Shown one piece after another: positions 7,936 through 20,178 of a stretch of DNA of 64,000 bases. Position 1 is the first letter of the stretch, and each line of letters opens with the position of its first letter. The notes under the pieces were generated by a model that saw only the letters and a list, made by a program, of their open reading frames with translations, was not told where the DNA came from and searched no databases. Position numbers and translations under genes: made by a program. The DNA is from Marispirochaeta sp. (GTDB lineage: Bacteria > Spirochaetota > Spirochaetia > JC444 > Marispirochaetaceae): the NCBI GenBank assembly GCA_963676835.2, contig CAXXFF010000001.1, forward strand, positions 544,001 through 608,000, read 5' to 3'.

Positions 7936-9439
7936 GGCGAAACTCCCCTGTAATGCGTCCAATAACAAGAAGAAGATCGGAAGCAGTAAATACTCCGAAC
8001 TCCTCTGCTGCCTGTGCTGCCGCCTGCTGATGTATCCAGGCAGCAGTTCCTGCACAGGCAAATCCGTCGAGGTCTCCTGCGGCCATAAGTCCTGCAGTAA
8101 GACCCGCCAGAACATCGCCGCTGCCGCCGGTTCCAGTTAGAGGGTTCATACCGTCGATAACGGCCGATCTGCCCCCGGGGGATACCACACAGGAGACATG
8201 GCCCTTCAGAAGAACCGTGGCATTGTATTTTTCTGAAGCCGCCGCTGCGGCTCCGAAGGGATCATCTGTAATGTCGCTATTTGAACAGTTCAGAAGGCGG
8301 GCACACTCCCCGGGATGGGGTGTCAGAATCCAGTCAGGATTCAGCTGAAGTGAGCTTTCCGCCAGCTGCGACAAAAGAGTCAGGCCGTCGGCATCAATAA
8401 CTCCTCTTTTGAAAGAGGAGACTATATCCGGCAACAGATTACCCCGCCCATCAAGCCCCCATCCGGGTCCCACAAGTACCGATGCATACCCCCGCAAATC
8501 CGGCAGATCCACAGAAGAATTCAGTGCAACAGGCCGCATAATCACCGGGGGAATCTGCCCCGCGGCGCTTGAGTAAATATCATCATCCAGAAAAAGGGTA
8601 ACAAGCCCTGCTCCGCTTCGTGCACACGCTTCTGCTGCCAATAGTGCTGCCCCCAGGGTGCCTTTTGAACCGGCAAAGAGTGCCGCATGTCCGCGGGTTT
8701 TCTTGTATGCCGTGGCAGCAAAGGGCTTCAGAACCTCGCGTACTTCATCCCGGTCCCAGAGGGTCCAGCCCGGAGTCTCGTCGACAAGACCTTCCGGAAA
8801 TCCGATGGGAATGTGCCGGATTTTTCCGCAGAACTCCCTGGCTGCAGGATGATACAGCGCCAGTTTTCCCGGAGCCACCGTAAGGGTAAGATCTGCAGGC
8901 AGAACGGTAAAGCCGGGCTTGAAGGAGTCCCCGATTCCCGAAGGCACATCCACTGCAGCTGTTCGGAAACTTTTCTCAGAAAGGTTCGCGACAAAAGAGG
9001 CGCACTCCCCCGGCAGCCGCGAAAGTTCTCCCTTGAGGCCTGTGCCGCTTAAGCCGTCGATGAGAATATCTGCACTGCGTATGGCATCTTCAGCCTTTTC
9101 CCTGTTGCGGGCAAAGGAAATCTGCTCCAGTCCCAGCTTTTTGCAGACAGCAAGCCACTGTCCAGCCAGACCTGAGTATTCATCTTTAAAGGTAATTATT
9201 GTTATAGAGGAGTATCCGGCGGCAGCTGCCTGCCGGGCCATAACCAGGGCATCCCCCCCGTTATTTCCGCCCCCGGCAAGAATAATTAGAGAATCAGTTT
9301 TTTCCGGGCGGAATTCCGACTCCAGGGCTTCAAAAAGACGTATACCGGCATTCTCCATGAGAATAACACCGGGAATGCCGTACTCATCCTGTGTGCGGCG
9401 GTCTATTTCTACTGCTCCAGTGTCAGGTACCAGCTTCAT
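7922..9439 (-). CDS. nnr: bifunctional NAD(P)H-hydrate epimerase/dehydratase (YjeF)
   Basis: LMENAG, GGGNNGGD, DVPSG, VIDADG, LTPHPGE, GGSGDVLAG. Confidence 0.93.
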   Translation of the reverse strand: MKLVPDTGAVEIDRRTQDEYGIPGVILMENAGIRLFEALESEFRPEKTDSLIILAGGGNNGGDALVMARQAAAAGYSSITIITFKDEYSGLAGQWLAVCKKLGLEQISFARNREKAEDAIRSADILIDGLSGTGLKGELSRLPGECASFVANLSEKSFRTAAVDVPSGIGDSFKPGFTVLPADLTLTVAPGKLALYHPAAREFCGKIRHIPIGFPEGLVDETPGWTLWDRDEVREVLKPFAATAYKKTRGHAALFAGSKGTLGAALLAAEACARSGAGLVTLFLDDDIYSSAAGQIPPVIMRPVALNSSVDLPDLRGYASVLVGPGWGLDGRGNLLPDIVSSFKRGVIDADGLTLLSQLAESSLQLNPDWILTPHPGECARLLNCSNSDITDDPFGAAAAASEKYNATVLLKGHVSCVVSPGGRSAVIDGMNPLTGTGGSGDVLAGLTAGLMAAGDLDGFACAGTAAWIHQQAAAQAAEEFGVFTASDLLLVIGRITGEFRREGA

Positions 9440-10709
9440 CTTTCTTTTTTGCCCTTTCTGCGGTTTTCTCTGCATCCCGCTGCATATCAAGTACTTTATC
9501 GGTCCGCCACCAGACCAGATCGGCCTCATACTCCCTGCAGAGAACTGCAGTCAGAATGCCGTCGTTATTGAGATGAAAATCCCGGTAGAAGATCTCCCGG
9601 TCCTGGAGGTTGATCCTGGGGCGGTCGATAACCACGCCGTTACGGTCGACCACCAGAATCTGATACTGTCCCGCGGAAAACGGCCCTATGAGAAAGAAAA
9701 ACCCTCCCCGGGCAACACCGAGAAACTCATGCAGAACCTCTTCGTCCTGGCCTGCCCCGAGTCCGGGGAGTTCCTGCTTGCGGACCACATGGGGAACCTC
9801 CATGGAGCCCTCATACTCTCCAGTGGCAGGATTCAGCCAGTAGAAATAACTTGCATAATAGTCGATTCTGGTTCCGGTCCCGCTGATAGACTCCCGAACC
9901 TCCCGGTAGGTATCGATCTTTACATAGAGGGTATCGTCTTCGGTGTCGGGAATGATTTTTTCCAGAGACGGAATAATCCCCTCTTCATCCGGTGCGGGAA
10001 GATTGGACAACGGTACAGTTACCTGGTATTTCAGGGATCCCCCCGAGGTAAACCAGAACACCAGCCAGGCATCCTCTCCCCGGGAAACGATTATAATATC
10101 ATCCCTGCTGTTTACGTGAATGTTCTCGATGTAGGGAAAGGGAGTACCGCCGATACCCTCCTGTCCGAGATAATCAAGATAGTTACCGGCGGCATCAAAC
10201 CGGCGCACAACCCGGTTAAGGTAGGCATGCATCTCGGGGCTGGTTTCCGCCCGGGCATCCGGAACCGCATCCTCCACCAGCAGATTGCCGCCGCTTGAAA
10301 CCGCTATCTCACCAACCTCCAGAAAAGGGAAAGGAAGTGCTACCCTGCTTGATACCCGGTCATCACCTTCCGGCGTGTTGAGCAGCACCGGTTTGGGATT
10401 GAAATCGGGATTGTAATGCAGGCTGAGAAGGTCTCCGTAGGAAGAGAACTCCATAACCTTGCGTCCCCGGGAGTTGGCGAGAAAGATAATTCCGTCCTTC
10501 ATGTTGACCCTTATACGGTCATCGAAGGAGGAAATCCCGTCATAATAGATATCCAGCTGGTCTTCCATTTTGCCAATGGGAATGGAAAAAAGCTGCTCCT
10601 GTTCGAGGGTGGCGTTCCCTCCGGAAGAACAGGAGAAAAAAAGAACAGGGATAAGAGAAAATAATATAAGCCCCCGCAGGCGGCTGTAGTCGTCGGTACT
10701 GCTTTTCAT
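9423..10709 (-). CDS. spirochaete lipoprotein, LIC_12708-like (beta-propeller-like)
   Basis: Lipobox LFFSC; FSIPIGKMEDQL and YLGQEGIGGTPF motifs; becomes the divergent neighbour of secA if the island is removed. Confidence 0.65.
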   Translation of the reverse strand: MKSSTDDYSRLRGLILFSLIPVLFFSCSSGGNATLEQEQLFSIPIGKMEDQLDIYYDGISSFDDRIRVNMKDGIIFLANSRGRKVMEFSSYGDLLSLHYNPDFNPKPVLLNTPEGDDRVSSRVALPFPFLEVGEIAVSSGGNLLVEDAVPDARAETSPEMHAYLNRVVRRFDAAGNYLDYLGQEGIGGTPFPYIENIHVNSRDDIIIVSRGEDAWLVFWFTSGGSLKYQVTVPLSNLPAPDEEGIIPSLEKIIPDTEDDTLYVKIDTYREVRESISGTGTRIDYYASYFYWLNPATGEYEGSMEVPHVVRKQELPGLGAGQDEEVLHEFLGVARGGFFFLIGPFSAGQYQILVVDRNGVVIDRPRINLQDREIFYRDFHLNNDGILTAVLCREYEADLVWWRTDKVLDMQRDAEKTAERAKKKDEAGT

Positions 10710-10719
10710 AGCTGTCAGG

Positions 10720-10748
10720 ATTCTACAACCGCCATAGTAAAAGGTCAA
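10720..10748 (-). promoter_or_regulatory. sigma70 promoter of the lipoprotein-nnr operon
   Basis: TTGACC-17 bp-TAGAAT, 10 nt upstream of ATG 10709. Confidence 0.6.
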
Positions 10749-10756
10749 CAAAGGGA

Positions 10757-10782
10757 ATTTACTGACTTTCCCCGAACTTTTC
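10757..10782 (+). repeat. left 26-bp direct repeat (attL / target duplication)
   Basis: ATTTACTGACTTTCCCCGAACTTTTC, identical to 20309-20334. Confidence 0.9.
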
Positions 10783-10963
10783 AAAATTGCTTTACGACCA
10801 ATCCAAATTGACGGTAATCGATAATTGGGCTATTATTTACATGGTAAGCCCATGAAAACAGACAGTCAGTCAAAAAGACAGGAACCATCATCTCATCCAA
10901 AAGAATCACAAAAACCAAACAGGCAAAGGCCGGGACAGGGTTTTCCCGGACCACAGATACAAA

Positions 10964-11524
10964 ATGAAGGCTGGAAACCGCGTTCCTGCCGCAGTTAGAA
11001 AACAACGCACCATAACAGGCAGATCGGCTCTTCTCTATGAATACTCACGTTATGTGTATGATCACAGCATTGCCCGCTTCGGCCGGGTCGACCAAAAGGC
11101 TGCCGGTATGCTGTCGACTTCTGTTATTGTCATCGGAGTTGTCTTCGGTCTGGGTTCAGAATGGGTCTATGCGGATTTAACAAACCGCTTATCCACTGCC
11201 TTTTCTCTGCTCTCATGGTTATTTGCAACCGGAATCCTTATATCAGCAGGGATGGCTATCGGCTCAGGAATTGCCGCCCTGAGAATCAGTGAAATTTAAA
11301 CACCGCCTCTCCACGAAGGGGTGCCTGATTACATGCTGGATCAGCCACTTGTAGATTCACACACAGGGGCGGCAACAACCCTGCTTGAGGCAAACATATC
11401 CATTACGGAACAGCTGGACCGCAAAGGACGCAATGTGGAACGGGCTGTTATATGGACAATCGTGCTTATTGCTTTCAGCGCCGCCGCTTTTCTGTCATCT
11501 ATGATCCGTAGTGTGCTGGTTTAG
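10964..11524 (+). pseudogene. 3-TM membrane protein resembling Pycsar effector PycTM/DUF5706, interrupted by an in-frame stop
   Basis: ORFs 10964-11299 and 11321-11524 share a frame, split by TAA 11297-11299; DQKAAGML + 2 TM ... RKGRNVERAV + TM pattern. Confidence 0.5.
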
Positions 11525-11541
11525 AAGGATGCGGGCTCCAG

Positions 11542-11630
11542 CTGCCTTCGACTCCGCTCAAGCACCGCGTCTTAACGGTGAATGCTGCCTTCGACTCCGC
11601 TCAGGCAGCGCTGGTACGACGCGGGGTGAG
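11542..11630. repeat. composite REP-like hairpin element, copy 1
   Basis: Two TGCCTTCGACTCCGCTCA(A/G)GCA units; the second is nested in a CCGCGTC...GACGCGG stem. Confidence 0.85.
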
Positions 11631-11635
11631 AAGTC

Positions 11636-12889
11636 CTACTCTTCATATACCGTAACCATCCCCTCGCCTTCGTAACGCAGCTCACCCTGCTCCTCGGCCA
11701 GGTCAAGGAAGGCGCCGAAGCACCAGCCGGAGAGGCCGTCGGATTCCCGGACTATGCGGTACCAGGGGTGTTCGCCCCAGGGGTCGATGGTCTCTTTGGG
11801 GCCGGAGCGGTCAAGGACTTTTACCGTTTCGCCCTGTTCCAGGAAGCCCATGTGTTTTGCCTGGAGGTTGGGTTTTTCGCGGACACGGATGTGGGTGTCG
11901 GTTACTTTGGCGGTGGTTTCTTTGAAGAGGAGGTTGTGGGTCATTAACCAGTCGCGGAGGGGGGTTGCGTCGACCAGGTACGGATGATAGTCATCCCCAC
12001 CAAAACCCCAACGGAAATTCGGTGAAAACCGGAATGTTGAAGGTTTTCCATTGAGAGTTATATTTAATTTGACTGCCTTAGCCGGTTCTCCTATACGCTG
12101 CAGCCAGTAATTTCCATTCTTCTCATTTGGACCACATGGAATAAGAATGTTCTCGTTACCTACAAAATGGCCTCCATAATCTGCATCCGACCAATCGCCA
12201 CCTTCTTCAAATAAAGTTCCATATCCAATTTGTTTCTGGCCTGCGTCTATTTGGTAGATAGAGAAATCCCTGTCTTCTACTTCTGTATCATCATAGTACT
12301 CATCATTCTCATCTTCATCGATCAACAAATACTCTTTATCCGGGGAAATAGCATGCAGAACACCTTCCACAGGGAATGGTTCCCAGGTTTCATCAGCAAA
12401 GTTAACCAGGGCTACTTTACTGGAAAATGTCCCCGCTTCATCAGACATGAACTTACGCATCTGCACATAACCAAAATCATTTTGGTAATAGAGCATATAG
12501 GACATAGGAAATGAAACTCCAGACATTTTATTTTCAGCCATGAAACGTTGTACAAAAGAATATTCATTAGAGCTTTTAGTTGTTACATTATACAATATTC
12601 CCGGAAGTCGTCGTTCCTGTACAATAATAAACTTATCCTCCCAAGGGCATAATAGATAAGTCCCATACGTCGAACCGATAAAAACTCCATTTAAAGTCCG
12701 TAAATCATACAGCTTAAAATCACGTTGATGATTCTCCGGTAAACTTTCCATAACACATAAAAAATCATTCATTAGTACAGATGAATGCAAAACTTTCCCA
12801 ATCTGTTTTACCGGTTTTAGATCTATAGTCTGAGCATATGACATAACCGCACACAACATTCCCATGACAAGTATTATTCTTTTTTTCAT
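11636..12889 (-). CDS. secreted protein with C-terminal bacterial SH3 (SH3b) domain, paralog 1 (candidate immunity protein)
   Basis: Signal peptide MKKRIILVMGMLCAVMSYA; IRVREKPN...GETVKVL...WYRI...GWCFGAFL SH3b pattern. Confidence 0.8.
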   Translation of the reverse strand: MKKRIILVMGMLCAVMSYAQTIDLKPVKQIGKVLHSSVLMNDFLCVMESLPENHQRDFKLYDLRTLNGVFIGSTYGTYLLCPWEDKFIIVQERRLPGILYNVTTKSSNEYSFVQRFMAENKMSGVSFPMSYMLYYQNDFGYVQMRKFMSDEAGTFSSKVALVNFADETWEPFPVEGVLHAISPDKEYLLIDEDENDEYYDDTEVEDRDFSIYQIDAGQKQIGYGTLFEEGGDWSDADYGGHFVGNENILIPCGPNEKNGNYWLQRIGEPAKAVKLNITLNGKPSTFRFSPNFRWGFGGDDYHPYLVDATPLRDWLMTHNLLFKETTAKVTDTHIRVREKPNLQAKHMGFLEQGETVKVLDRSGPKETIDPWGEHPWYRIVRESDGLSGWCFGAFLDLAEEQGELRYEGEGMVTVYEE

Positions 12890-12938
12890 ACTCTTATTCT
12901 CTCCTCAAGTAAGCATACATGTGTGAAAAACTACCAGA

Positions 12939-14612
12939 CTACTGATTATAATACAGATCCGGATCCCATCGATCTTCCTTCAATACGTCGTCATGCAGAA
13001 TTACAGATGAATGATTCTGATTATACTCTTCAATAGCATCCTGGAACCAAAATGGTAGAGAAAGATCATTATTATTATCATTGAAAAAATAGAGCCAACT
13101 ATGCTGAAACGCATATGTATTAATATCTGCAAGCCAGGAATCAGCAACCGTAGTATCTATTTTTGGTTTTTGGGTAATAGTACCTGAAGAATACTCTGTA
13201 CGCTTTTCTTCATAACTTCCATGGCTTCCTACCAGTCTTGCCCACCACCCATAGGTGTCCAGTCTTTCAGTTGCTCCGGTTACATCAGTCTTTGTAAGGG
13301 TATACAGAGAATGATCAAAACACGAAAGAAGATTTACTCGTTCCCATACATTGCTGCCATTCTCAATAAATGATTCATACACTTCCATATGAATATGCGC
13401 CCCGGTTGAACCTTCGCCGAGGTTTCCAACATAACCAATCCGTTCACCTTTTTTAACCGGCAACAGGAAAATCTTGTTGGGATCCTGTTCTTGCCCTACT
13501 ATAGCCTCAAATTGAGTGGCATTTTGTAATGTCCCGTCTGTATAGTGCGATAAATAGGGAAAGTCTTCCTGGATATTTCCTGAATTACCCATATGACAGA
13601 ATAGGTAAACCCGTCCCTGCCGGGGGTCATCCGGCCTTGTTACTAAAACACCTATCCAACCATATATTTGTGATCTGTAAGCTTGCAGAGAGCCTTGTTT
13701 ATTCTTATCCGAACCGTACACAGGCATTTCATTGGCTGTATCCCAATCTACCGACCTCCACAGATAAAACTCACCATCTTCCGGAGCAAGAAAAACCGCT
13801 CTATTGGATTCGGTATTCCAAAATGTTGTTGCATTTTCATCATCAGCATCTGGTATCGTCGGAATAGCCCTTGAACGGCTAATATCCACACCAAGGTGGT
13901 AGTTAATAAAGTGTCCCGTCACCACACCACTGTTTTCAACCACCCTATTACGCCAGCCATTAAGCTGAGTTATTTTAACCCTGTCTGTTCCCGGAAAAAG
14001 CGGCTGGTCTGTTCTGTAAGACAAAGAGGTTGATGGAAGTTCGCGATGGTAATAATTCTTGGGCGTCGAAACACCTTTAACTTTTCCAGAAACCAAATGC
14101 TGTAGAATACTTTTATCGTTTTCCGTTAACGCTTCATCACCAGTTAAATCAGTTGCATCCGGTTCTATTCGGTAGGCTGCCCGCGGCACCTCCGTCTCCG
14201 GCGGATAATAACTCCTCAACTTAACCTTATACTCATCCAGCAACTCCCACCCCGGCTTCTCCCCCGCCGCGCTCAACTCCCCGGTCGCACTCTTCTTCAA
14301 GAGCCTTCGGGCATGGTATTTACCCGGTTCCAGGCTGAAGCCGCCGAAGCCCCCTGCGGGGTTGCCCCAGGTTGCAAGGCTCACCTGACGCAGGCTGCGG
14401 TTTACGGATATAAGGTAGATGCTGTTCATGTAGTCCTGGGTGGTGGCGCTGCTGTCGAGGCCGGCAAAGTTAGTGCGGACAACCACGCCCAGGTGGGTTT
14501 CGCCGGTGTCATTGGTACGCATAATGAGGTCCCCCGGGCAAATTTGGGAGAGGGAGGGGATTATGGTGGTTATGCGTTCGAGTTCCGGCGATACTGGGAC
14601 TGTACTTTTCAT
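12939..14612 (-). CDS. M23-family zinc peptidase-domain protein, paralog 1 (candidate peptidoglycan-cleaving effector)
   Basis: HLGVD (HxxxD), YLFCHM, VKKGERIGYVGNLG, HIH (HxH); no signal peptide. Confidence 0.8.
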   Translation of the reverse strand: MKSTVPVSPELERITTIIPSLSQICPGDLIMRTNDTGETHLGVVVRTNFAGLDSSATTQDYMNSIYLISVNRSLRQVSLATWGNPAGGFGGFSLEPGKYHARRLLKKSATGELSAAGEKPGWELLDEYKVKLRSYYPPETEVPRAAYRIEPDATDLTGDEALTENDKSILQHLVSGKVKGVSTPKNYYHRELPSTSLSYRTDQPLFPGTDRVKITQLNGWRNRVVENSGVVTGHFINYHLGVDISRSRAIPTIPDADDENATTFWNTESNRAVFLAPEDGEFYLWRSVDWDTANEMPVYGSDKNKQGSLQAYRSQIYGWIGVLVTRPDDPRQGRVYLFCHMGNSGNIQEDFPYLSHYTDGTLQNATQFEAIVGQEQDPNKIFLLPVKKGERIGYVGNLGEGSTGAHIHMEVYESFIENGSNVWERVNLLSCFDHSLYTLTKTDVTGATERLDTYGWWARLVGSHGSYEEKRTEYSSGTITQKPKIDTTVADSWLADINTYAFQHSWLYFFNDNNNDLSLPFWFQDAIEEYNQNHSSVILHDDVLKEDRWDPDLYYNQ

Positions 14613-14823
14613 GATGAGAAAATGGTATCATGCCTTTTCTATTACTTCCAGTATAAGCAGTTACAATCTTCCAAAACAGGTATGGCCATACAGTTTTAAA
14701 ATAGCAATACGATCGACCTGTATGGGTAAAGCAACAATAAGCGGGAACTGCATGATTCTACCGGGAATCTCTCAACGCATATCCGTCTTGCTCCCGCTTT
14801 CTATAGTGCAGTATACTAAAGGC

Positions 14824-15699
14824 ATGAATAGAAAACGTCCTTTAAACCCAATGGATGATATCTTTGTCAAATATCTTCTGGGAACAGAAGAGAACAAAGA
14901 TCTGCTTATAAGCTTTATCAACGCCGTATTGGATGAAAAAGGATATGACCTCGTTTTGGATGTTGAGATTAAAAACCCCTTCAATCCGGCAAAGATTATT
15001 GAGTCCAAGTTTTCTGTTCTGGATATTAAAGCAAAAGACACCAAAGGCAGAATGATCAACATAGAGGTACAGGTTAGCTCAGACCCCTATTTTGCATCAC
15101 GAAGTCTCTACTACTGGGCAAAGATTTACAGTGATCAACTGGAATCGGGGGATCAATACAGAGAGCTGAATCAGACAATATGCATAAACCTTTTGTCGTT
15201 TAATCTCTTTGAAACCCAGGACAGTTTCCACAGCTGTTTTCAGATAACGGAAGTTGGAAAACCGGAAAATATACTTACAGAAGATCTTCAGATTCATTTT
15301 ATTGAAATAGAAAAACTGAAATCTCATCTGGAAAAACATGAGCCAAGAGATACCCTGGAAGGCTGGTGTTATTACTTCTTAAATGAAGGCCTGATCGAGG
15401 AGGACAAGATGCCCGTTTTACTGAAAAAGGACAAAATATTTAACAAAGCCGGCTCAATATACAGAAACTTTACCGCCGATGAAGAAAAAATGGAGCTTAT
15501 TGAAGCCCGTGAAAAATGGCTTAAGGATTACAATTCCAAAATAGAGTCTGTACGTCAGGAAGGACGTCAGGAAGGTCAGCAAGAAGGACGTCAACAGGGC
15601 CATATGGAAGATGCCAGAAACCTCAAGCAGTTGGGGGTTGATTTGGCGATTATTTCCAAGGCAACGGGGTTGGCCCTTGATGTTATTGAGAAATTGTAA
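14824..15699 (+). CDS. Rpn family PD-(D/E)XK nuclease / putative transposase
   Basis: DIFVKYLLG, LDIKA, INIEVQ, RSLYYWAKIY, QIHFIE, C-terminal QEGR repeats and ISKATGL; start at ATG 14824. Confidence 0.92.
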   Translation: MNRKRPLNPMDDIFVKYLLGTEENKDLLISFINAVLDEKGYDLVLDVEIKNPFNPAKIIESKFSVLDIKAKDTKGRMINIEVQVSSDPYFASRSLYYWAKIYSDQLESGDQYRELNQTICINLLSFNLFETQDSFHSCFQITEVGKPENILTEDLQIHFIEIEKLKSHLEKHEPRDTLEGWCYYFLNEGLIEEDKMPVLLKKDKIFNKAGSIYRNFTADEEKMELIEAREKWLKDYNSKIESVRQEGRQEGQQEGRQQGHMEDARNLKQLGVDLAIISKATGLALDVIEKL

Positions 15700-15716
15700 A
15701 GTTTAGTTGATTAGGA

Positions 15717-15810
15717 CTGCCTTCGACTCCGCTCAGGCACCGCGTCATAAAGGTGAATGCGGACCTGCCTTCGACTCCGCTCAGGCATCGCTGGTATGAC
15801 GCGGGGTGAG
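15717..15810. repeat. composite REP-like hairpin element, copy 2
   Basis: Same two-unit structure; perfect 10-bp stem CCGCGTCATA/TATGACGCGG. Confidence 0.85.
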
Positions 15811-15815
15811 GGGCC

Positions 15816-17075
15816 CTACTCCTCATACACCGTAACCATCCCCTCCCCGTTATACCGCAGCTCACCCTGCTCCTCGGCCAGGTTTAGAAACGCTCCGAAG
15901 CACCAGCCGGAGAGGCCGTCGGATTCCCGGACTATGCGGTACCAGGGGTGTTCGCCCCAGGGGTCGATGGTCTCTTTGGGGCCGGAGCGGTCCAGGACTT
16001 TTACCGTTTCGCCCTGTTCCAGGAAGCCCATGTGTTTTGCCTGGAGGTTGGGGTTTTCGCGGACACGGATGTGGGTGTCGGTTACTTTGGCGGTGGTTTC
16101 TTTGAAGAGGAGGTTGTGCGACATTAGCCAGTTGCGGAGGGGGGTTGCGTCAACAAGTCCGTCGCCATGGTCAGTATCACATAGGCCCCAGCGGAAATCC
16201 GGTGAGAACCGGACATAAACCTGTTCTCCGTCAACAGATATTGTCAGTTTGACAGCCTTATTAGGCTCACCAATTCTTTGCAGATAATAATTACATTCCT
16301 TATTATTAAAACCAGCAGGAATTAAAATGTTTTCATTTCCGGCAAATTGACCACCGTAGTCTTTATCCATCCAGTCCGCATCTGTGTAGTCGCCATATCC
16401 ATTTGCCAGTAAATCTTCATCAAATCTATAGATAGAAAAATCCGAGATATCATCAGAAACTACTCTTTCCCCTTCATCAACATCGATCAATAGGCACTCT
16501 TTGTCCGGTGAGATGGCATGCAGAACACCCCTAACCTGAAAAAAATCAGTCTTCCCGGTACTAATGTTTAATATCCCGATTTTACTGCCCCAAGATCCAC
16601 CTTCCTCTGAAAACATTTTCTGCATTTGAATGTAGTAGATATCATTCTGATACGGCAACAGTGCTTCCACGGGTACTGCACCCCATCTATTTGTGTTCTC
16701 TTTGATGAATTGATCCCCGAGAGGAAAACGTTCGGATGTCTGTGTGGTGAAATCGTAGAGATAGCTTCGAATAGGGTTCAACACAACAACCCAGACTCTA
16801 TTGCCTATTGGACCCGCAAGTGCAGTCAGTCCCTCGTACCCACCGAAGACCTCTTTCTGATCACTTAGTACGAATTGGAAAAGATCTGGTGATGTATCTC
16901 CATTTTCAATTCTTTTTCTTCTATACGCAAAAAATGCTTCGTTTGTAAAGAAAGCGCTATTTACAGATAAATGGTTAAAGGTATCAATACCCTTTAGCTC
17001 TATAGTATCTGCAGTGAGATCAAAGGTAGTAAAAATGAAAATATTTACAATAATTATTTTGATGAGTGTCTTCAT
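15816..17075 (-). CDS. secreted protein with C-terminal SH3b domain, paralog 2 (candidate immunity protein)
   Basis: Signal peptide; last ~110 aa almost identical to paralog 1, N-terminal ~300 aa divergent. Confidence 0.8.
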   Translation of the reverse strand: MKTLIKIIIVNIFIFTTFDLTADTIELKGIDTFNHLSVNSAFFTNEAFFAYRRKRIENGDTSPDLFQFVLSDQKEVFGGYEGLTALAGPIGNRVWVVVLNPIRSYLYDFTTQTSERFPLGDQFIKENTNRWGAVPVEALLPYQNDIYYIQMQKMFSEEGGSWGSKIGILNISTGKTDFFQVRGVLHAISPDKECLLIDVDEGERVVSDDISDFSIYRFDEDLLANGYGDYTDADWMDKDYGGQFAGNENILIPAGFNNKECNYYLQRIGEPNKAVKLTISVDGEQVYVRFSPDFRWGLCDTDHGDGLVDATPLRNWLMSHNLLFKETTAKVTDTHIRVRENPNLQAKHMGFLEQGETVKVLDRSGPKETIDPWGEHPWYRIVRESDGLSGWCFGAFLNLAEEQGELRYNGEGMVTVYEE

Positions 17076-17105
17076 CCTTCAACTCCATATTTAATAAGCA
17101 CAACA

Positions 17106-18737
17106 TTAATCGAAATACTTTCTTTCATCCCAGCGGTCTTCCTTGAAAAGATCAGTAAACTTGATCGAGGTTCCATTATTTGTATTGAACTCATTAATCT
17201 CTGCAATCAAGTCATCATAAAACTTTATCCATGTTTGGGCATACTCATATGTATCTTCTGTCCCAAACCAGGACCCCAGTACAGTAGTATCAATTAATGG
17301 GTCAATTGACATAGCGGCTGTTAAGACAACACGGGCAGCATCATACTGATTCCAGCGACCTACGACCCGGGACCACCAGCCATAACTATCCAGAAAACCC
17401 GGAATACTGTTCAACCGATAGAGGGAGGTATCAAAACAGGAAAGAGGATCTACTCTTCTCCAAACTTTATCTCCATCCGATCCAAAGGCTTCATACACCT
17501 CCATATGGATGTGTTTCCCAGTCCCTGCGCCCAGAGCACCCACATAGCCTAATCTATCACCCTTTCTAACATTGAGGATAAGACGTTCATTAATGTTTTC
17601 CTCCATACCAGAGATAACATTAAAATCAGTTTGCCCTTCCGGCAAAGTCGGATCTAATGGCCCGTCAATGTAATCCGCAAGTTGCTCGGCATTAAACGGA
17701 ACTTCTGTGGTTGGCTGACCGCTTCCTCCCATATGTGCAAAGAGATATATCCTACCTGACTCAGGATTATCTGGACGGGTTATAAGAATACCCATGTAGC
17801 CGTAACTATAAGAACTGTGAGCCGCAATAGTTCCTTGTTGATTTTTATCGCCAGAATATACCGGGATTTCTCCAGGCGTCCTCCAGCTGTTTGATCGCCA
17901 GATATAAAAAATACCATCCTCCGGAGCAAGGAATACATCTTTCTGTTCATCATTACCCAATGCAGGATCACGGGAAAAATCGACTCCTGTATGGTAGTTA
18001 ACATAGTGGTATATTATATCGTTACCCTCAGTATCTTGTATCGGTTCCCCATCCTCATCTACAACATTATCCTCTCGGTTTCGCCAGCCGGACAACTGAG
18101 TCACCACAGCCCGGTTTCCTATTGGATATAGTCGTTGGTCGGTCCGGTACGAAAAAGAAGTAGTCGGTAGTTCGCGGTGGTAATAATGGTGTTTATATAA
18201 GCCAATCTCACCTGCCACAAGTTTTTTGATAACACTCTCATCGTTTGCCATCAATGCAGCCTCACCAGTTAGGTCAGTTACATCTGGAACTATCTTATGA
18301 GCTTCCCGCGGAACCTCCGTCTCCGGCGGATAATAACTCCTCAATTTAACCTTATACTCATCCAGCAACTCCCACCCCGGCTTCTCCCCCGCCGCGCTCA
18401 GCTCCCCGGTCGCACTCTTCTTCAAGAGCCTTCGGGCATGGTATTTATCCGGTTCCAGGCTGAAGCCGCCAAAGCCCCCTGCGGGGTTGCCCCAGGTTGC
18501 AAGGCTTACCTGACGCAGGCTGCGGTTTACGGATATGAGGTAGATGCTGTTCATGTAGTCCTGTGAGGTGGCGCTGCTGTCGAGGCCGGTAAAGGTGGTG
18601 CGGACAACCACGCCCAGGTGGGTTTCGCCGGTGTCGTTGGTACGCATTATGAGGTCCCCCGGGCGGATTTGGGAAAGGGAGGGGATTATGGTGCTTATGC
18701 GTTCGAGTTCCGGCGATACTGAGACTGTACTTTTCAT
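17106..18737 (-). CDS. M23-family zinc peptidase-domain protein, paralog 2 (candidate effector)
   Basis: HTGVD, YLFAHM, VRKGDRLGYVG, HIH; first ~144 aa almost identical to paralog 1. Confidence 0.8.
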   Translation of the reverse strand: MKSTVSVSPELERISTIIPSLSQIRPGDLIMRTNDTGETHLGVVVRTTFTGLDSSATSQDYMNSIYLISVNRSLRQVSLATWGNPAGGFGGFSLEPDKYHARRLLKKSATGELSAAGEKPGWELLDEYKVKLRSYYPPETEVPREAHKIVPDVTDLTGEAALMANDESVIKKLVAGEIGLYKHHYYHRELPTTSFSYRTDQRLYPIGNRAVVTQLSGWRNREDNVVDEDGEPIQDTEGNDIIYHYVNYHTGVDFSRDPALGNDEQKDVFLAPEDGIFYIWRSNSWRTPGEIPVYSGDKNQQGTIAAHSSYSYGYMGILITRPDNPESGRIYLFAHMGGSGQPTTEVPFNAEQLADYIDGPLDPTLPEGQTDFNVISGMEENINERLILNVRKGDRLGYVGALGAGTGKHIHMEVYEAFGSDGDKVWRRVDPLSCFDTSLYRLNSIPGFLDSYGWWSRVVGRWNQYDAARVVLTAAMSIDPLIDTTVLGSWFGTEDTYEYAQTWIKFYDDLIAEINEFNTNNGTSIKFTDLFKEDRWDERKYFD

Positions 18738-18850
18738 GATGGGGTGATTTTAGCATGCGCGGGGAAGGATCGCTACCCGGACATATACATCGCCGAGGAC
18801 CTATAAACCATATACCCAAATTCTATAAACAGGAGGAACGTGCTATTTTA

Positions 18851-18894
18851 TTGTCATCAGAGTTATTTTCATGTAACATATTGATATACATGAA
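18851..18894 (+). promoter_or_regulatory. promoter and operator of the antitoxin-yafQ operon
   Basis: TTGTCA-17-TAACAT overlapped by inverted repeat TTCATGTA-11-TACATGAA (18868-18894). Confidence 0.55.
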
Positions 18895-18915
18895 TACAGT
18901 AACGGGGATTTACCA

Positions 18916-19137
18916 ATGAACAGCACAATGAAACAGTTGATCATTGCTGAGCTTGATACACTTTCTGACCGTAAAGGCTACTCTCTACTCGATTATCTTC
19001 ATTTTTTGAGAAATGAAGCTGAAGATTATTTACCAAATGATACAACACTAAACTCAATCAAAGAAGTTGAAGACAATAAAAGTACATTAAAATCGTATTC
19101 ATCTTCGGATGAACTCTTTTCAGACTTGGATATATAG
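18916..19137 (+). CDS. antitoxin (DinJ/RelB-like C-terminus)
   Basis: PNDTTLNSIKE...YSSSDELFSDL acidic tail; directly upstream of yafQ. Confidence 0.75.
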   Translation: MNSTMKQLIIAELDTLSDRKGYSLLDYLHFLRNEAEDYLPNDTTLNSIKEVEDNKSTLKSYSSSDELFSDLDI

Positions 19138-19145
19138 GCCAAGAT

Positions 19146-19433
19146 TTGTACAGGATTACTCCCTCAACTCAATTTAAAAAAGATCTGAAGAAATTGAAAA
19201 AATCGGGCCGAAAACCAAGTGACTTTGATCGAATAAAATGGGTTATAAATCAATTGGCTATCCCTGCGATACTGCCTGAACAATATAAAGATCATGCATT
19301 ATCCGGCAATTTCAATCAGTATCGGGACTGCCATATTTTCCCGGATCTCTTACTCATCTACTACCAGGATGAGGACAATCACCAGTTATTCCTTTACAGA
19401 ATCGGGTCTCATTCAGAATTATTCAGAAAATAG
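19146..19433 (+). CDS. yafQ: YafQ family mRNA interferase toxin
   Basis: QFKKDLK, YKDHALSGN, RDCHIFPDLLLIY, RIGSHSELF. Confidence 0.92.
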   Translation: MYRITPSTQFKKDLKKLKKSGRKPSDFDRIKWVINQLAIPAILPEQYKDHALSGNFNQYRDCHIFPDLLLIYYQDEDNHQLFLYRIGSHSELFRK

Positions 19434-19442
19434 GCAATTGAT

Positions 19443-19539
19443 TGCCTTCGACTACGCTCAGGCACCGCGTCATACAGGTGAATGCTGGCGGGACTGTCTT
19501 CGACTCCGCTCAGGCACCGCTGGTACATCGCGGGGTGAG
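19443..19539. repeat. composite REP-like hairpin element, copy 3
   Basis: Same two-unit structure with a few substitutions. Confidence 0.85.
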
Positions 19540-19544
19540 GGCCC

Positions 19545-19580
19545 CTACTCCTCATACACCAAAACCATCCCCTCACCCTT
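19545..19580 (-). pseudogene. 3' remnant of a third SH3b gene
   Basis: Encodes KGEGMVLVYEE-stop versus EGEGMVTVYEE-stop, at the same offset from the repeat. Confidence 0.75.
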
Positions 19581-19887
19581 CCTTAATCGCGTCATTCCTC
19601 TCTTGCATTACCGGGAAGGGGATTACATGAATCTCTTTATTCTCAGATTCCCAGAGATCCAGTTTCGCCTGCATCCCCAACCAGCTTTCGGGGCTGGTAT
19701 TTGTTGCCTTTGATATTCGAACTGCCATATCAGGACTTAATGCTATCTTCTCACCAAGGAGTTCAGATAAGTTCTTTCTCGACACTCCCAAATCTTTTGC
19801 GGCTTCTGTTATGGTCAAACCAAGAGGCTTTAATACCTCTTCCTTAAGTAAATATCCGGGATGGGTTGGTTTTCTTCTGCTATTCAT
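19573..19887 (-). CDS. higA: HigA family antitoxin
   Basis: PTHPGYLL, HTH, LSPDMAVRI, SPESWLGMQAKLDLW. Confidence 0.92.
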   Translation of the reverse strand: MNSRRKPTHPGYLLKEEVLKPLGLTITEAAKDLGVSRKNLSELLGEKIALSPDMAVRISKATNTSPESWLGMQAKLDLWESENKEIHVIPFPVMQERNDAIKEG

Positions 19888-19899
19888 GGGTCCCCTCAC

Positions 19900-20178
19900 C
19901 TAATGATAATCCCTGTAATCAACGACATATGCATCACCTTTTTCAAAATAGAAAGTGACTCTCCAGTTTCCATTAACCACAACCGACCAGATATCCTTTT
20001 CTTTTCCTGAAAGCTGGTGAAGTCTGAATCCCGGAAGATTCATGTCTTCTACTCTGATTGATGCATCCAATCTATCTAAAATTCTTCCAATCTTTGAAGC
20101 TTGTTCAGGAATGATGCCTTTCTTTGTACCGGTTACAAAATACTGCTCCAAGCCTTTATGTTTGAAAGATTTTATCAT
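19900..20178 (-). CDS. higB: HigB family toxin
   Basis: MIKSFKHKGL, PGFRLHQL, WSVVVNGNWRVTF, DYRDYH; toxin-first order. Confidence 0.93.
   Translation of the reverse strand: MIKSFKHKGLEQYFVTGTKKGIIPEQASKIGRILDRLDASIRVEDMNLPGFRLHQLSGKEKDIWSVVVNGNWRVTFYFEKGDAYVVDYRDYH

Follow-up and report, generated by a model that had tools for sequence, protein, structure and literature searches.

Rhs genes have a core rich in guanine and cytosine (GC) and tips rich in adenine and thymine (AT), the peptidoglycan-hydrolase pairs of type VI secretion systems (T6SS; Tse1-Tsi1, Tae-Tai) match a signal-less effector with a periplasmic immunity protein, and the known immunity to lysins of the lysostaphin type acts by modification of the wall and not through an inhibitor. 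Here we describe a tandem array of gene pairs in Marispirochaeta sp. that we compared with these systems and with the CdiA and MafB loci, each pair consisting of an M23-like peptidase gene and the gene of a secreted partner with an SH3b domain. The array lies in a stretch of 64,000 nucleotides (nt) of assembly GCA_963676835.2 (contig CAXXFF010000001.1, positions 544,001 to 608,000), which we refer to as the window and whose first letter is position 1. We regard it as an evenly balanced proposition that the window units form a spirochaete-restricted, orphan-like array of polymorphic cassettes, each encoding a peptidoglycan hydrolase and an immunity-type partner.

The list of open reading frames (ORFs) places two tandem pairs on the minus strand, each with the peptidase gene followed by the partner gene, and in each unit a variable core lies between a constant 5' arm at the start of the peptidase gene and a constant 3' arm at the end of the partner gene. 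The features of the two units are as follows (aa, amino acids).

11540..11635, minus strand: array-specific tandem repeat pair 3' of partner gene 1, the outer end of the 3' arm (D3 copies 11540-11585 and 11583-11628)
11636..12889, minus strand: partner gene 1 (unit 1), 417 aa; 3' arm 11639-11977
12939..14612, minus strand: M23-like metallopeptidase gene 1 (unit 1), 557 aa; 5' arm 14181-14612 plus about 28 nt upstream (aa 1-144, to PETEVPR); core 12942-14180
15715..15815, minus strand: array-specific tandem repeat pair 3' of partner gene 2 (D3 copies 15715-15760 and 15763-15808)
15816..17075, minus strand: partner gene 2 (unit 2), 419 aa; 3' arm 15819-16157
17106..18737, minus strand: M23-like metallopeptidase gene 2 (unit 2), 543 aa; 5' arm 18306-18737 (up to 18765); core 17109-18305

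When the two units were aligned and compared in sliding 60-nt windows, identity was 0.87-0.98 in the 5' arm (14207-14640 against 18332-18765) and 0.82-1.00 in the 3' arm (about 11586-11990 against 15766-16170), and mostly 0.35-0.65 across the approximately 2.2 kb of core between them, so that divergence along the units is non-uniform, as the sliding-window check proposed in a preliminary description of this DNA had anticipated. BLASTN aligned the 5' arms at 95.6% identity over 436 nt and the 3' arms at 92.5% over 441 nt (E = 0 in both cases); taken together, arm identity amounts to 92-98%. The 5' arm of about 435 nt corresponds to the first 144 codons of the M23 gene and about 28 nt upstream, the 3' arm of about 430 nt to the last 113 codons of the partner and the tandem repeat pair, and at the protein level the borders are sharp, falling directly after PETEVPR in the M23 gene and directly before LVDATPL in the partner. 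That description, made from the sequence alone, had reported a near-identical 5' block that breaks off after PETEVPR with HxxxD and HxH kept, a near-identical SH3b 3' block with a downstream repeat, and an AT-richer variable core between constant arms; sliding identity, BLASTN, base composition and the family alignment (alignment A1) bear out these observations, and a third copy of the repeat was located at 19440-19580.

The locus resembles Rhs in joining a GC-rich conserved part to an AT-rich cassette. The arms have a GC content of 0.58-0.60 and a third-codon-position GC content (GC3) of 0.73-0.76, against 0.38-0.44 and 0.33-0.38 in the cores, which are AT-rich and foreign-looking by composition; the GC3 of housekeeping neighbours (0.59-0.63; SecA 0.63) is below that of the arms, and GC-biased gene conversion is one possible cause of the high arm value. 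Synonymous divergence (dS; this and the ratio to it of nonsynonymous divergence, dN/dS, are simple Nei-Gojobori estimates, with the frameshifted M23 gene of unit 3 excluded from the dN/dS table) between M23 arms within the source genome was 0.08-0.13, and between M23 cores it was at least 1.75 or saturated. Because synonymous divergence is low in the arms and saturated in the cores, protein-level selection alone does not account for the contrast, and the differences in both GC3 and dS indicate that arms and cores have had separate histories.

The anatomy of the locus is shared in several respects with Rhs, CdiA and MafB loci as presented in the sections of Zhang et al. (2012, PMC3482391) on which we draw: a conserved upstream part is followed by an abruptly variable enzymatic C-terminus and a variable downstream partner, 5'-truncated orphan modules keep the conserved stretch, and the arrays lie among mobile genes. 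Unlike these loci, the array has no Rhs/YD, TPS, PAAR, LXG or MafB-N trafficking domain, its N-terminal region belonging instead to an undescribed family; only two main kinds of C-terminus occur, both of them wall hydrolases; the second homology arm lies inside the partner gene; and this genome contains no full-length gene. As in T6SS wall-hydrolase pairs, an effector without a signal peptide is combined with a partner whose N-terminus is signal-like by eye, and the adjacent genes co-vary, although no T6SS was detected in this genome. The effector-immunity modules of V. cholerae, as far as the part of PMC5361080 used here describes them, are similar in exchange by homologous recombination and in the retention of orphan genes; the model given there has one upstream homology anchor and illegitimate joining, whereas both cassette ends are homologous here. 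With lysostaphin, ALE-1 and zoocin A the locus shares the M23 motifs HxxxD, H and HxH and the association of an SH3b wall-binding domain with the enzyme, but the SH3b domain sits on a separate exported propeller protein and the M23 domain has long insertions and scores below the family cut-off. No description of the family was found among titles and abstracts in the literature. The novelty lies in the protein family and its propeller-SH3b partner, but chiefly in the combination of an array-specific repeat with a second homology arm that is located within the partner gene.

As judged from their motifs, the window peptidases are very divergent members of the M23 family with large insertions. The motifs read YHLGVD, CHMG and HIHMEVY in gene 1 and YHTGVD, AHMG and HIHMEVY in gene 2, and every M23-family row of alignment A1 that covers them keeps HxxxD (7 rows), the third histidine and HxH (8 rows each), in the forms YH(L/T/Q/R)G(V/L)D, (C/A)H(M/L/Q) and H(I/V/A)H(M/L/I)(E/D)V. 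The motifs thus place both window proteins in M23 while their Pfam scores, given below, fall short of the cut-off; a relative, P0010, scores 32.2 bits for Pfam Peptidase_M23. Against solved chains, the family profile matched LytM (1qwy, E 0.0057), TagE (5j1l, E 0.0093) and zoocin A, with E values of 0.006-0.06 overall and over the GxxGxxxxHxH stretch only. An AlphaFold2 model of M23-1 from a 9-row alignment had a mean predicted local distance difference test (pLDDT) score of 43, which is too low for a comparison of folds.

Long relatives carry a complete domain of some 190 aa, within which both window M23 genes have their start, the arm being its C-terminal two-thirds; by this comparison the window genes are short forms, truncated at the 5' end and lacking a signal, in a rare family of spirochaete proteins that are secreted and 1100-1900 aa long. 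All 5/5 copies with a complete 5' end, from two species, keep the ATG and the initial residues MKS[TA]VSV, and the reading frames of both window units are intact. The arm domain itself gave nothing significant against PDB and Pfam, with no PDB match below E 0.067. An NlpC/P60-like fold was considered for it and rejected: PF00877 matched at E 0.16 in only 1/8 rows, and the expected nucleophile position is S or A, by eye, in the long forms. Atlas neighbours of the arm domain that carry NLPC_P60 and M23 score only 0.85, which we treat as no more than a lead.

A word-based search recovered only 7 clusters of this family among 5.8 billion proteins, and an exhaustive profile search yielded 165 proteins at E <= 1e-3; a sub-profile rescan covered the 148 listed representatives P0008-P0155, the representatives of the window's own clusters being left out. 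Among proteins with a length of 900 aa or more, 69 had the arm domain, which lies far from their N-terminus; it leads into an M23 core in 18 and into a different region, some 600 aa long, in 51. Single-linkage clustering of the post-arm regions gave 5 clusters, of which the M23 and non-M23 classes are large and three are singletons. In 796/1953 pairs of long relatives, the 400 aa before the arm align and the part after it does not, the pattern expected of alternative C-terminal toxin domains. A heuristic assigned a signal-like N-terminus, of signal-peptide or lipoprotein character, to 51 of the 64 long relatives that start with methionine. One relative, P0043, ends in a canonical Cys/His NlpC/P60 motif by eye, and of 30 relatives searched with Pfam, 17 had no family, 12 matched nothing but M23 or SH3_3, a single one of them reaching the curated cut-off, and 1 had an F5/8-type C domain. 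The family is present in 10/301 genomes of the class and 2/6 of the genus, the source genome counted, and a single-protein query for related loci returned only the record of the sister species described below.

One distant locus (L033, G132:C1:1186001-1206000) contains two large paralogues with 72% identity across 881 aligned residues, beyond which their NlpC/P60-type C-termini cannot be aligned; downstream of each, a gene encodes a secreted protein of roughly 325 aa, the two being divergent and unmatched in Pfam at E <= 0.01. It also contains orphan C-terminal fragments of 146 and 147 aa (weak NlpC/P60 and CHAP matches), one of them 56% identical to the end of a main gene, and two transposase genes of the insertion sequence (IS) type IS3. 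By analogy with the loci described in the portions of Zhang et al. (2012, PMC3482391) used here, this is the anatomy of a polymorphic toxin locus. Orphan modules are thus represented both by these fragments and by the window units, which begin inside the conserved domain. A very large gene precedes long family members, its stop overlapping or abutting their start (L032 59-5287 in G163; L033 15792-19685 in G132; L011 3-1031 in G013); its domains are TIG/Ig-like with an OmpL47-type barrel in G163, weak Ig/PQQ in G132 and a weak, sub-cut-off RHS repeat in G013, and it may be a delivery or surface partner.

The N-terminus of partner 1 is signal-peptide-like by eye (MKKRIILVMGMLCAVMSYAQ), as is that of partner 2. 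Both proteins belong to Pfam SH3_3 (43.5 bits at aa 334-396 in partner 1, 42.7 bits in partner 2; cut-off 27), and ahead of the conserved C-terminal SH3b domain each partner carries a variable, all-beta, beta-propeller-like domain of about 290 aa (in partner 1, aa 20 to 309, approximately). An AlphaFold2 model of partner 1 had a pLDDT of 64, Foldseek matched it to WD40 and 6-bladed propellers at template modelling (TM) scores of 0.4-0.5, and atlas features place it near PD40/WD40-like clusters at 0.92. The two partners are 55% identical overall and near-identical past LVDATPL. A gene bearing SH3b directly follows an M23-type gene in 11/11 cases with downstream DNA (four in the source genome G000, two in G002, one in G013, three in G062 and one in G163). 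Most likely the partner acts as a wall-anchored cognate inhibitor, that is, an immunity protein; a complex prediction with the core of M23-1 (aa 146-557) and mature partner 1 gave a score of 0.16 against a mark of 0.32, which speaks neither for nor against binding.

Counting cassettes by BLASTN of the arms, as the preliminary description had proposed, gave four units in the source genome (4.4 Mb) at two loci, together with arm remnants, two units in a congener, and a further core type in another assembly (P0004), where a distinct core follows an arm 93-100% identical at the protein level. The second locus of the source genome (L001, G000:C1 about 821-833 kb, 265 kb from the window array) has two units, both damaged, as well as further 3'-arm remnants, in the gene order unit, Rpn, unit, as in the window. 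The M23 gene of unit 3 is frameshifted, for which a sequencing error is also possible, while unit 4 has an N-terminally truncated M23 gene and a partner interrupted by an IS21-type element (L001 11756-14067; IstB_IS21 at 218 bits and a transposase with a Mu-transposase C-terminal domain). The congener, a Marispirochaeta sp. metagenome-assembled genome representing a sister species (G002), has two tandem units, A and B, beside a type II secretion-like cluster. Such a cluster adjoins an array in both Marispirochaeta genomes (L013 70-8823; G000:C1:834858-843704), divergent from the first M23 gene, its secretin, ATPase, platform protein and pseudopilins being named by eye from translations; none was seen beside the family in the stretches of other genomes that were examined. 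Because this cluster flanks both the G002 array and the second locus, we take the second locus to be the ancestral site.

Three further features of the window bear on how its units came to be where they are.

14824..15699, plus strand: Rpn-family PD-(D/E)XK recombination-promoting nuclease / putative transposase gene, between units 1 and 2 (Pfam, NCBIfam)
18916..19433, plus strand: toxin-antitoxin pair at the position of an inter-unit spacer: an ORF of 73 aa without a family match, followed by a YafQ/RelE-type toxin at 19146-19433
19440..19580, minus strand: what is left of a third unit: final bases of a partner gene and a repeat pair (outer 3' arm), 86.5% identical to 15715-15851 over 141 nt

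The orthologues of G002 cores A and B are the cores of unit 4 and unit 2, respectively, which now lie at separate loci of the source genome. The YafQ region of the window (Pfam YafQ_toxin, E 1.1e-29) is 80% identical to the spacer between A and B (L013 11890-12408), and in G002 the counterpart of the remnant at 19440-19580 is found, in colinear order, at the 3' end of partner A and in the spacer; from these correspondences we conclude that the segment with unit 2 was moved, with one breakpoint inside a 3' arm. At the site taken as ancestral, partner A's 3' arm is now succeeded by a segment with Rpn and unit 3. Partner B is itself a mosaic, with two stretches 93-96% identical to unit 2 and a patch of about 100 aa nearer unit 3.

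Between orthologous M23 cores, dS was 0.205 and dN/dS 0.26 for unit 2 against B, and dS was 0.318 and dN/dS 0.23 for unit 4 against A; the M23 cores are under purifying selection. The syntenic genes adjoining the arrays had a dS of 0.48-1.14 in 5/5 cases, above that of the cores, and the lower value in the shared cores suggests cassette exchange between lineages after the species split, on the basis of few genes and simple estimates. M23 arm dS of 0.08-0.13 within the source genome, against 0.21-0.46 between species, indicates concerted evolution of these arms.

In four public runs from four studies, contigs cover the arms, and 35-74% of the aligned contigs continue into unlike sequence (4/4 runs), diverging at 11977/11980, 14180 and 18304, which are the arm/core borders. 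Translation of the contig ends shows that contigs past these borders lead into cores like those of unit 4 or A and of unit 3, and the unit 2 core was present in two runs, with 29 and 85 differences over 1.2 kb. Among metagenome contigs at JGI, an exact 21-nt arm pattern had 0 matches, and patterns from the partner alignment had matches in 211 stretches, none of them confirmed.

The gene between the two units is a clear member of the Rpn family (YhgA-like; Pfam PDDEXK_2 at E 1.7e-55, 188.7 bits against a cut-off of 27.4; NCBIfam TIGR01784 at E 1.2e-55, 189.2 bits against 52.1). The source genome has 2 copies, both between units of the two arrays (window 14824-15699; L001 about 9770-10655), and G002 has 0. 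Positions 14181-16216, running from the 5' arm of unit 1 through the Rpn gene to unit 2's 3' arm, are a contiguous block with 95.5% identity over 2048 nt to its counterpart at the second locus, so the arms of about 435 bp in the preliminary description have the size claimed, but the inner ones are parts of a single block and not free-standing. One marine metagenome contig joins Rpn to the 5' arm. We know of no link of Rpn genes to toxin cassette arrays, although no literature search was aimed at one, and the association seen here is not general: G002 has none, and the Rpn matches in G013, G062 and G163 sit on other contigs than the family genes. Because arms also occur without Rpn in both G002 units and at the outer ends of both loci, as well as in P0004, Rpn is not the origin of the arms; it is a lineage-specific passenger or possibly a helper.

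The downstream repeat is a 46-nt direct repeat that occurs as a tandem pair 3' of each partner gene, with the third window copy inside the remnant (repeat 19440-19537). All 13/13 genome matches to its 23-nt core (at most 3 mismatches) lie in the two arrays in a single orientation (window; G000:C1 822265-833883). A structured RNA was considered and rejected for the repeat, fold z-scores being -0.29, 0.70 and 0.33 (0.70 for the pair at 11540-11635) with no Rfam match at E <= 0.1.

In the mechanism that we propose, each module would encode a divergent M23 zinc peptidoglycan endopeptidase of the LytM/lysostaphin type followed by a Sec-exported periplasmic protein, in which a variable beta-propeller and a constant peptidoglycan-binding SH3b domain would together make a cognate inhibitor tethered to the cell's own wall. 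The same peptidase core forms the C-terminus of secreted proteins of 1100-1900 aa in distant relatives, and the window genes, being 5'-truncated and signal-less and starting inside a conserved domain, resemble for that reason the orphan toxin-CT/immunity modules of Rhs and CdiA systems. Homologous recombination or gene conversion would keep the GC-rich arms alike, and the arms would act as crossover sites at which AT-rich cassettes of peptidase core and partner core are rearranged within the genome and exchanged between lineages. With an arm at either end of the cassette, recombination could swap a pair as a whole, and the observed rearrangements are compatible with replacement by double crossover. 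Lytic activity, inhibition by the partner, a role in antagonism and the delivery route are what we infer from sequence. A bolder version, which we put forward as doubtful, is that this is an undescribed spirochaete bacteriolysin/immunity system in which double crossovers through two coding arms, an effector domain on one side and the inhibitor's wall-anchoring SH3b domain with the repeat on the other, would exchange each matched pair in a single step and between species, with Rpn between the arms raising the rate of exchange in this lineage.

A number of observations weigh against reading the window units as polymorphic hydrolase and immunity cassettes. The Pfam Peptidase_M23 scores of the two window proteins (19.8 bits at aa 386-413 in gene 1 and 18.2 bits in gene 2) are under the gathering cut-off of 28.7, and the ORF reading and Pfam showed neither a signal peptide nor a known trafficking domain in them, so that they lack the N-terminal secretion or trafficking part that characterises polymorphic toxins. 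No obvious Shine-Dalgarno sequence precedes their ATG by eye, the N-terminal region of the long forms (about 1000 aa) has no counterpart in the source genome (tblastn; best profile E 0.05), and no TssC, T6SS sheath, phage-type sheath or PAAR match was found there. Two of the four units of the genome are damaged by the frameshift, the truncation and the IS21 insertion, and the few kinds of C-terminus in the family (two main and three singletons) contrast with the greater variety of classical polymorphic toxins. The two M23 arms of G002 are not homogenised (dS 0.395), and since they differ, the system does not always have closely matching arms. The SH3b arms are about equally alike within and between species (dS 0.05-0.21), and because this similarity is uniform everywhere, constraint by purifying selection, besides conversion, keeps them conserved. 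Lastly, the wall- or carbohydrate-binding modules of the partner (SH3b, with F5/8-type C in G163 as well) suit a targeting subunit as much as an inhibitor. The preliminary description had proposed exchangeable polymorphic toxin-immunity cassettes; the mosaic, the core alleles shared between species, the branching of contigs at arm borders and the polymorphic-toxin-like family support that proposal, while the missing trafficking domain, full-length member and T6SS or PAAR match leave it only partly upheld.

The binding modules of the partner lead to another explanation, which we judge fairly unlikely: the pair could be a two-component lysin, a split lysostaphin (M23 plus SH3b) whose partner is a wall-targeting or activating subunit, with the propeller docking onto the variable core. 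Lysostaphin itself joins M23 to SH3b, and nothing in the partner is better conserved than its SH3b domain, in which paralogues hardly differ and which, measured over 30-residue windows, shares 46-66% identity with the distant G013 copy, where the propeller shares about 15-33%; the added F5/8-type C carbohydrate-binding domain of the G163 partner, an SH3_3 match in the effector itself of the long relative P0016 (22.8 bits, below the cut-off) and the constancy of the pairing (11/11) fit as well. However, a peptidase without a signal peptide would stay apart from a partner with one in the producing cell, the secreted partners of the NlpC/P60-type relatives in G132 match nothing in Pfam at E <= 0.01, and immunity proteins typically diverge extremely beside each variable catalytic core. 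It is unlikely, in our estimation, that the modules are relics, the short M23 forms being silent leftovers and the partners serving as orphan immunity against the long-form lysins of neighbours, or having no function. Such an account is helped by genes that begin inside a domain complete in the long forms in a genome without a long-form N-terminus, by M23 genes with neither signal peptide nor clear ribosome-binding site, by the broken units 3 and 4, and by the orphan immunity arrays that V. cholerae T6SS clusters retain, as reported in the part of PMC5361080 that concerns them; yet the M23 cores show dN/dS of 0.23-0.26 over dS of 0.2-0.3, and the window frames are intact, with the ATG and MKS[TA]VSV conserved in 5/5 complete copies of two species.

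Purifying selection on the cores would also be expected of ordinary wall-remodelling paralogues, a housekeeping-type hydrolase and its regulator with ends homogenised by gene conversion and no conflict role, and the ancestral locus is syntenic in two species beside the type II secretion-like cluster. M23/LytM factors and SH3b proteins commonly serve turnover of a cell's own wall. We nevertheless hold this to be quite improbable, the distribution being patchy (10/301 in the class, 2/6 in the genus, 7 clusters among 5.8 billion proteins), the cores AT-rich and foreign-looking with alleles less diverged than flanking genes, and the surroundings marked by toxin-antitoxin, IS and Rpn genes, broken copies and orphan fragments. 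That an Rpn-borne mobile element made the repeats, the arms being transposon ends that carry gene ends and not cassette borders, would explain the 2048-nt arm-Rpn-arm block that is 95.5% identical at two loci and holds the genome's only 2 Rpn copies, as well as the marine metagenome contig that joins Rpn to the 5' arm; it is highly improbable, because Rpn-free arms exist at the outer ends of both loci, in both G002 units and in P0004, and the arms encode, in frame, parts of domains that distant genomes conserve without a linked Rpn.

The arrays are set among toxin-antitoxin modules, the IS21 element and Rpn. Upstream of unit 2 the order is the YafQ-type pair, the third-unit remnant, a HigB/HigA pair and secA, and toxin-antitoxin genes occur around both arrays (HigB/HigA-like, YafQ, BrnT/BrnA and PIN; window 19573-20178 and 18916-19433, L001 3331-3892 and 5612-6031). 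Just outside the window array, on its other side, are a gene for an LIC_12708-family protein at 9423-10784 (NCBIfam, 422 bits) and two small ORFs without a family at 10964-11524. At 2.5 kb downstream of its array, G002 has further small ORFs and a fragment of an Rhs-associated core domain (L013 17941-18837; TIGR03696, 65 bits), which suggests an island of orphan toxin modules. A promoter and terminator scan found 15 promoter-like sites where 15.1 were expected. A prophage or plasmid origin found no support: tblastn with M23-1 against phage and plasmid collections gave no match, PADLOC returned nothing for the four window proteins, and the endolysin families of PHROGs were matched only by a stretch of 28-45 aa around the M23 motif.

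The sharp contrast in GC3 between arms and cores makes this locus a clean natural example of a recombination mosaic. The family to which it belongs is nearly invisible to annotation: neither its large N-terminal part nor its arm domain nor the propeller is covered by a curated family, and Pfam recognised no trafficking domain among the relatives scanned. To our knowledge, almost nothing is known of interbacterial antagonism in Spirochaetota, and if our reading is correct, free-living spirochaetes would have their own family of wall-degrading weapons with matched protection. It would also reveal a cassette whose second recombination arm comes from the immunity gene itself, and this origin of the arm would explain how effector and immunity stay matched through exchange.

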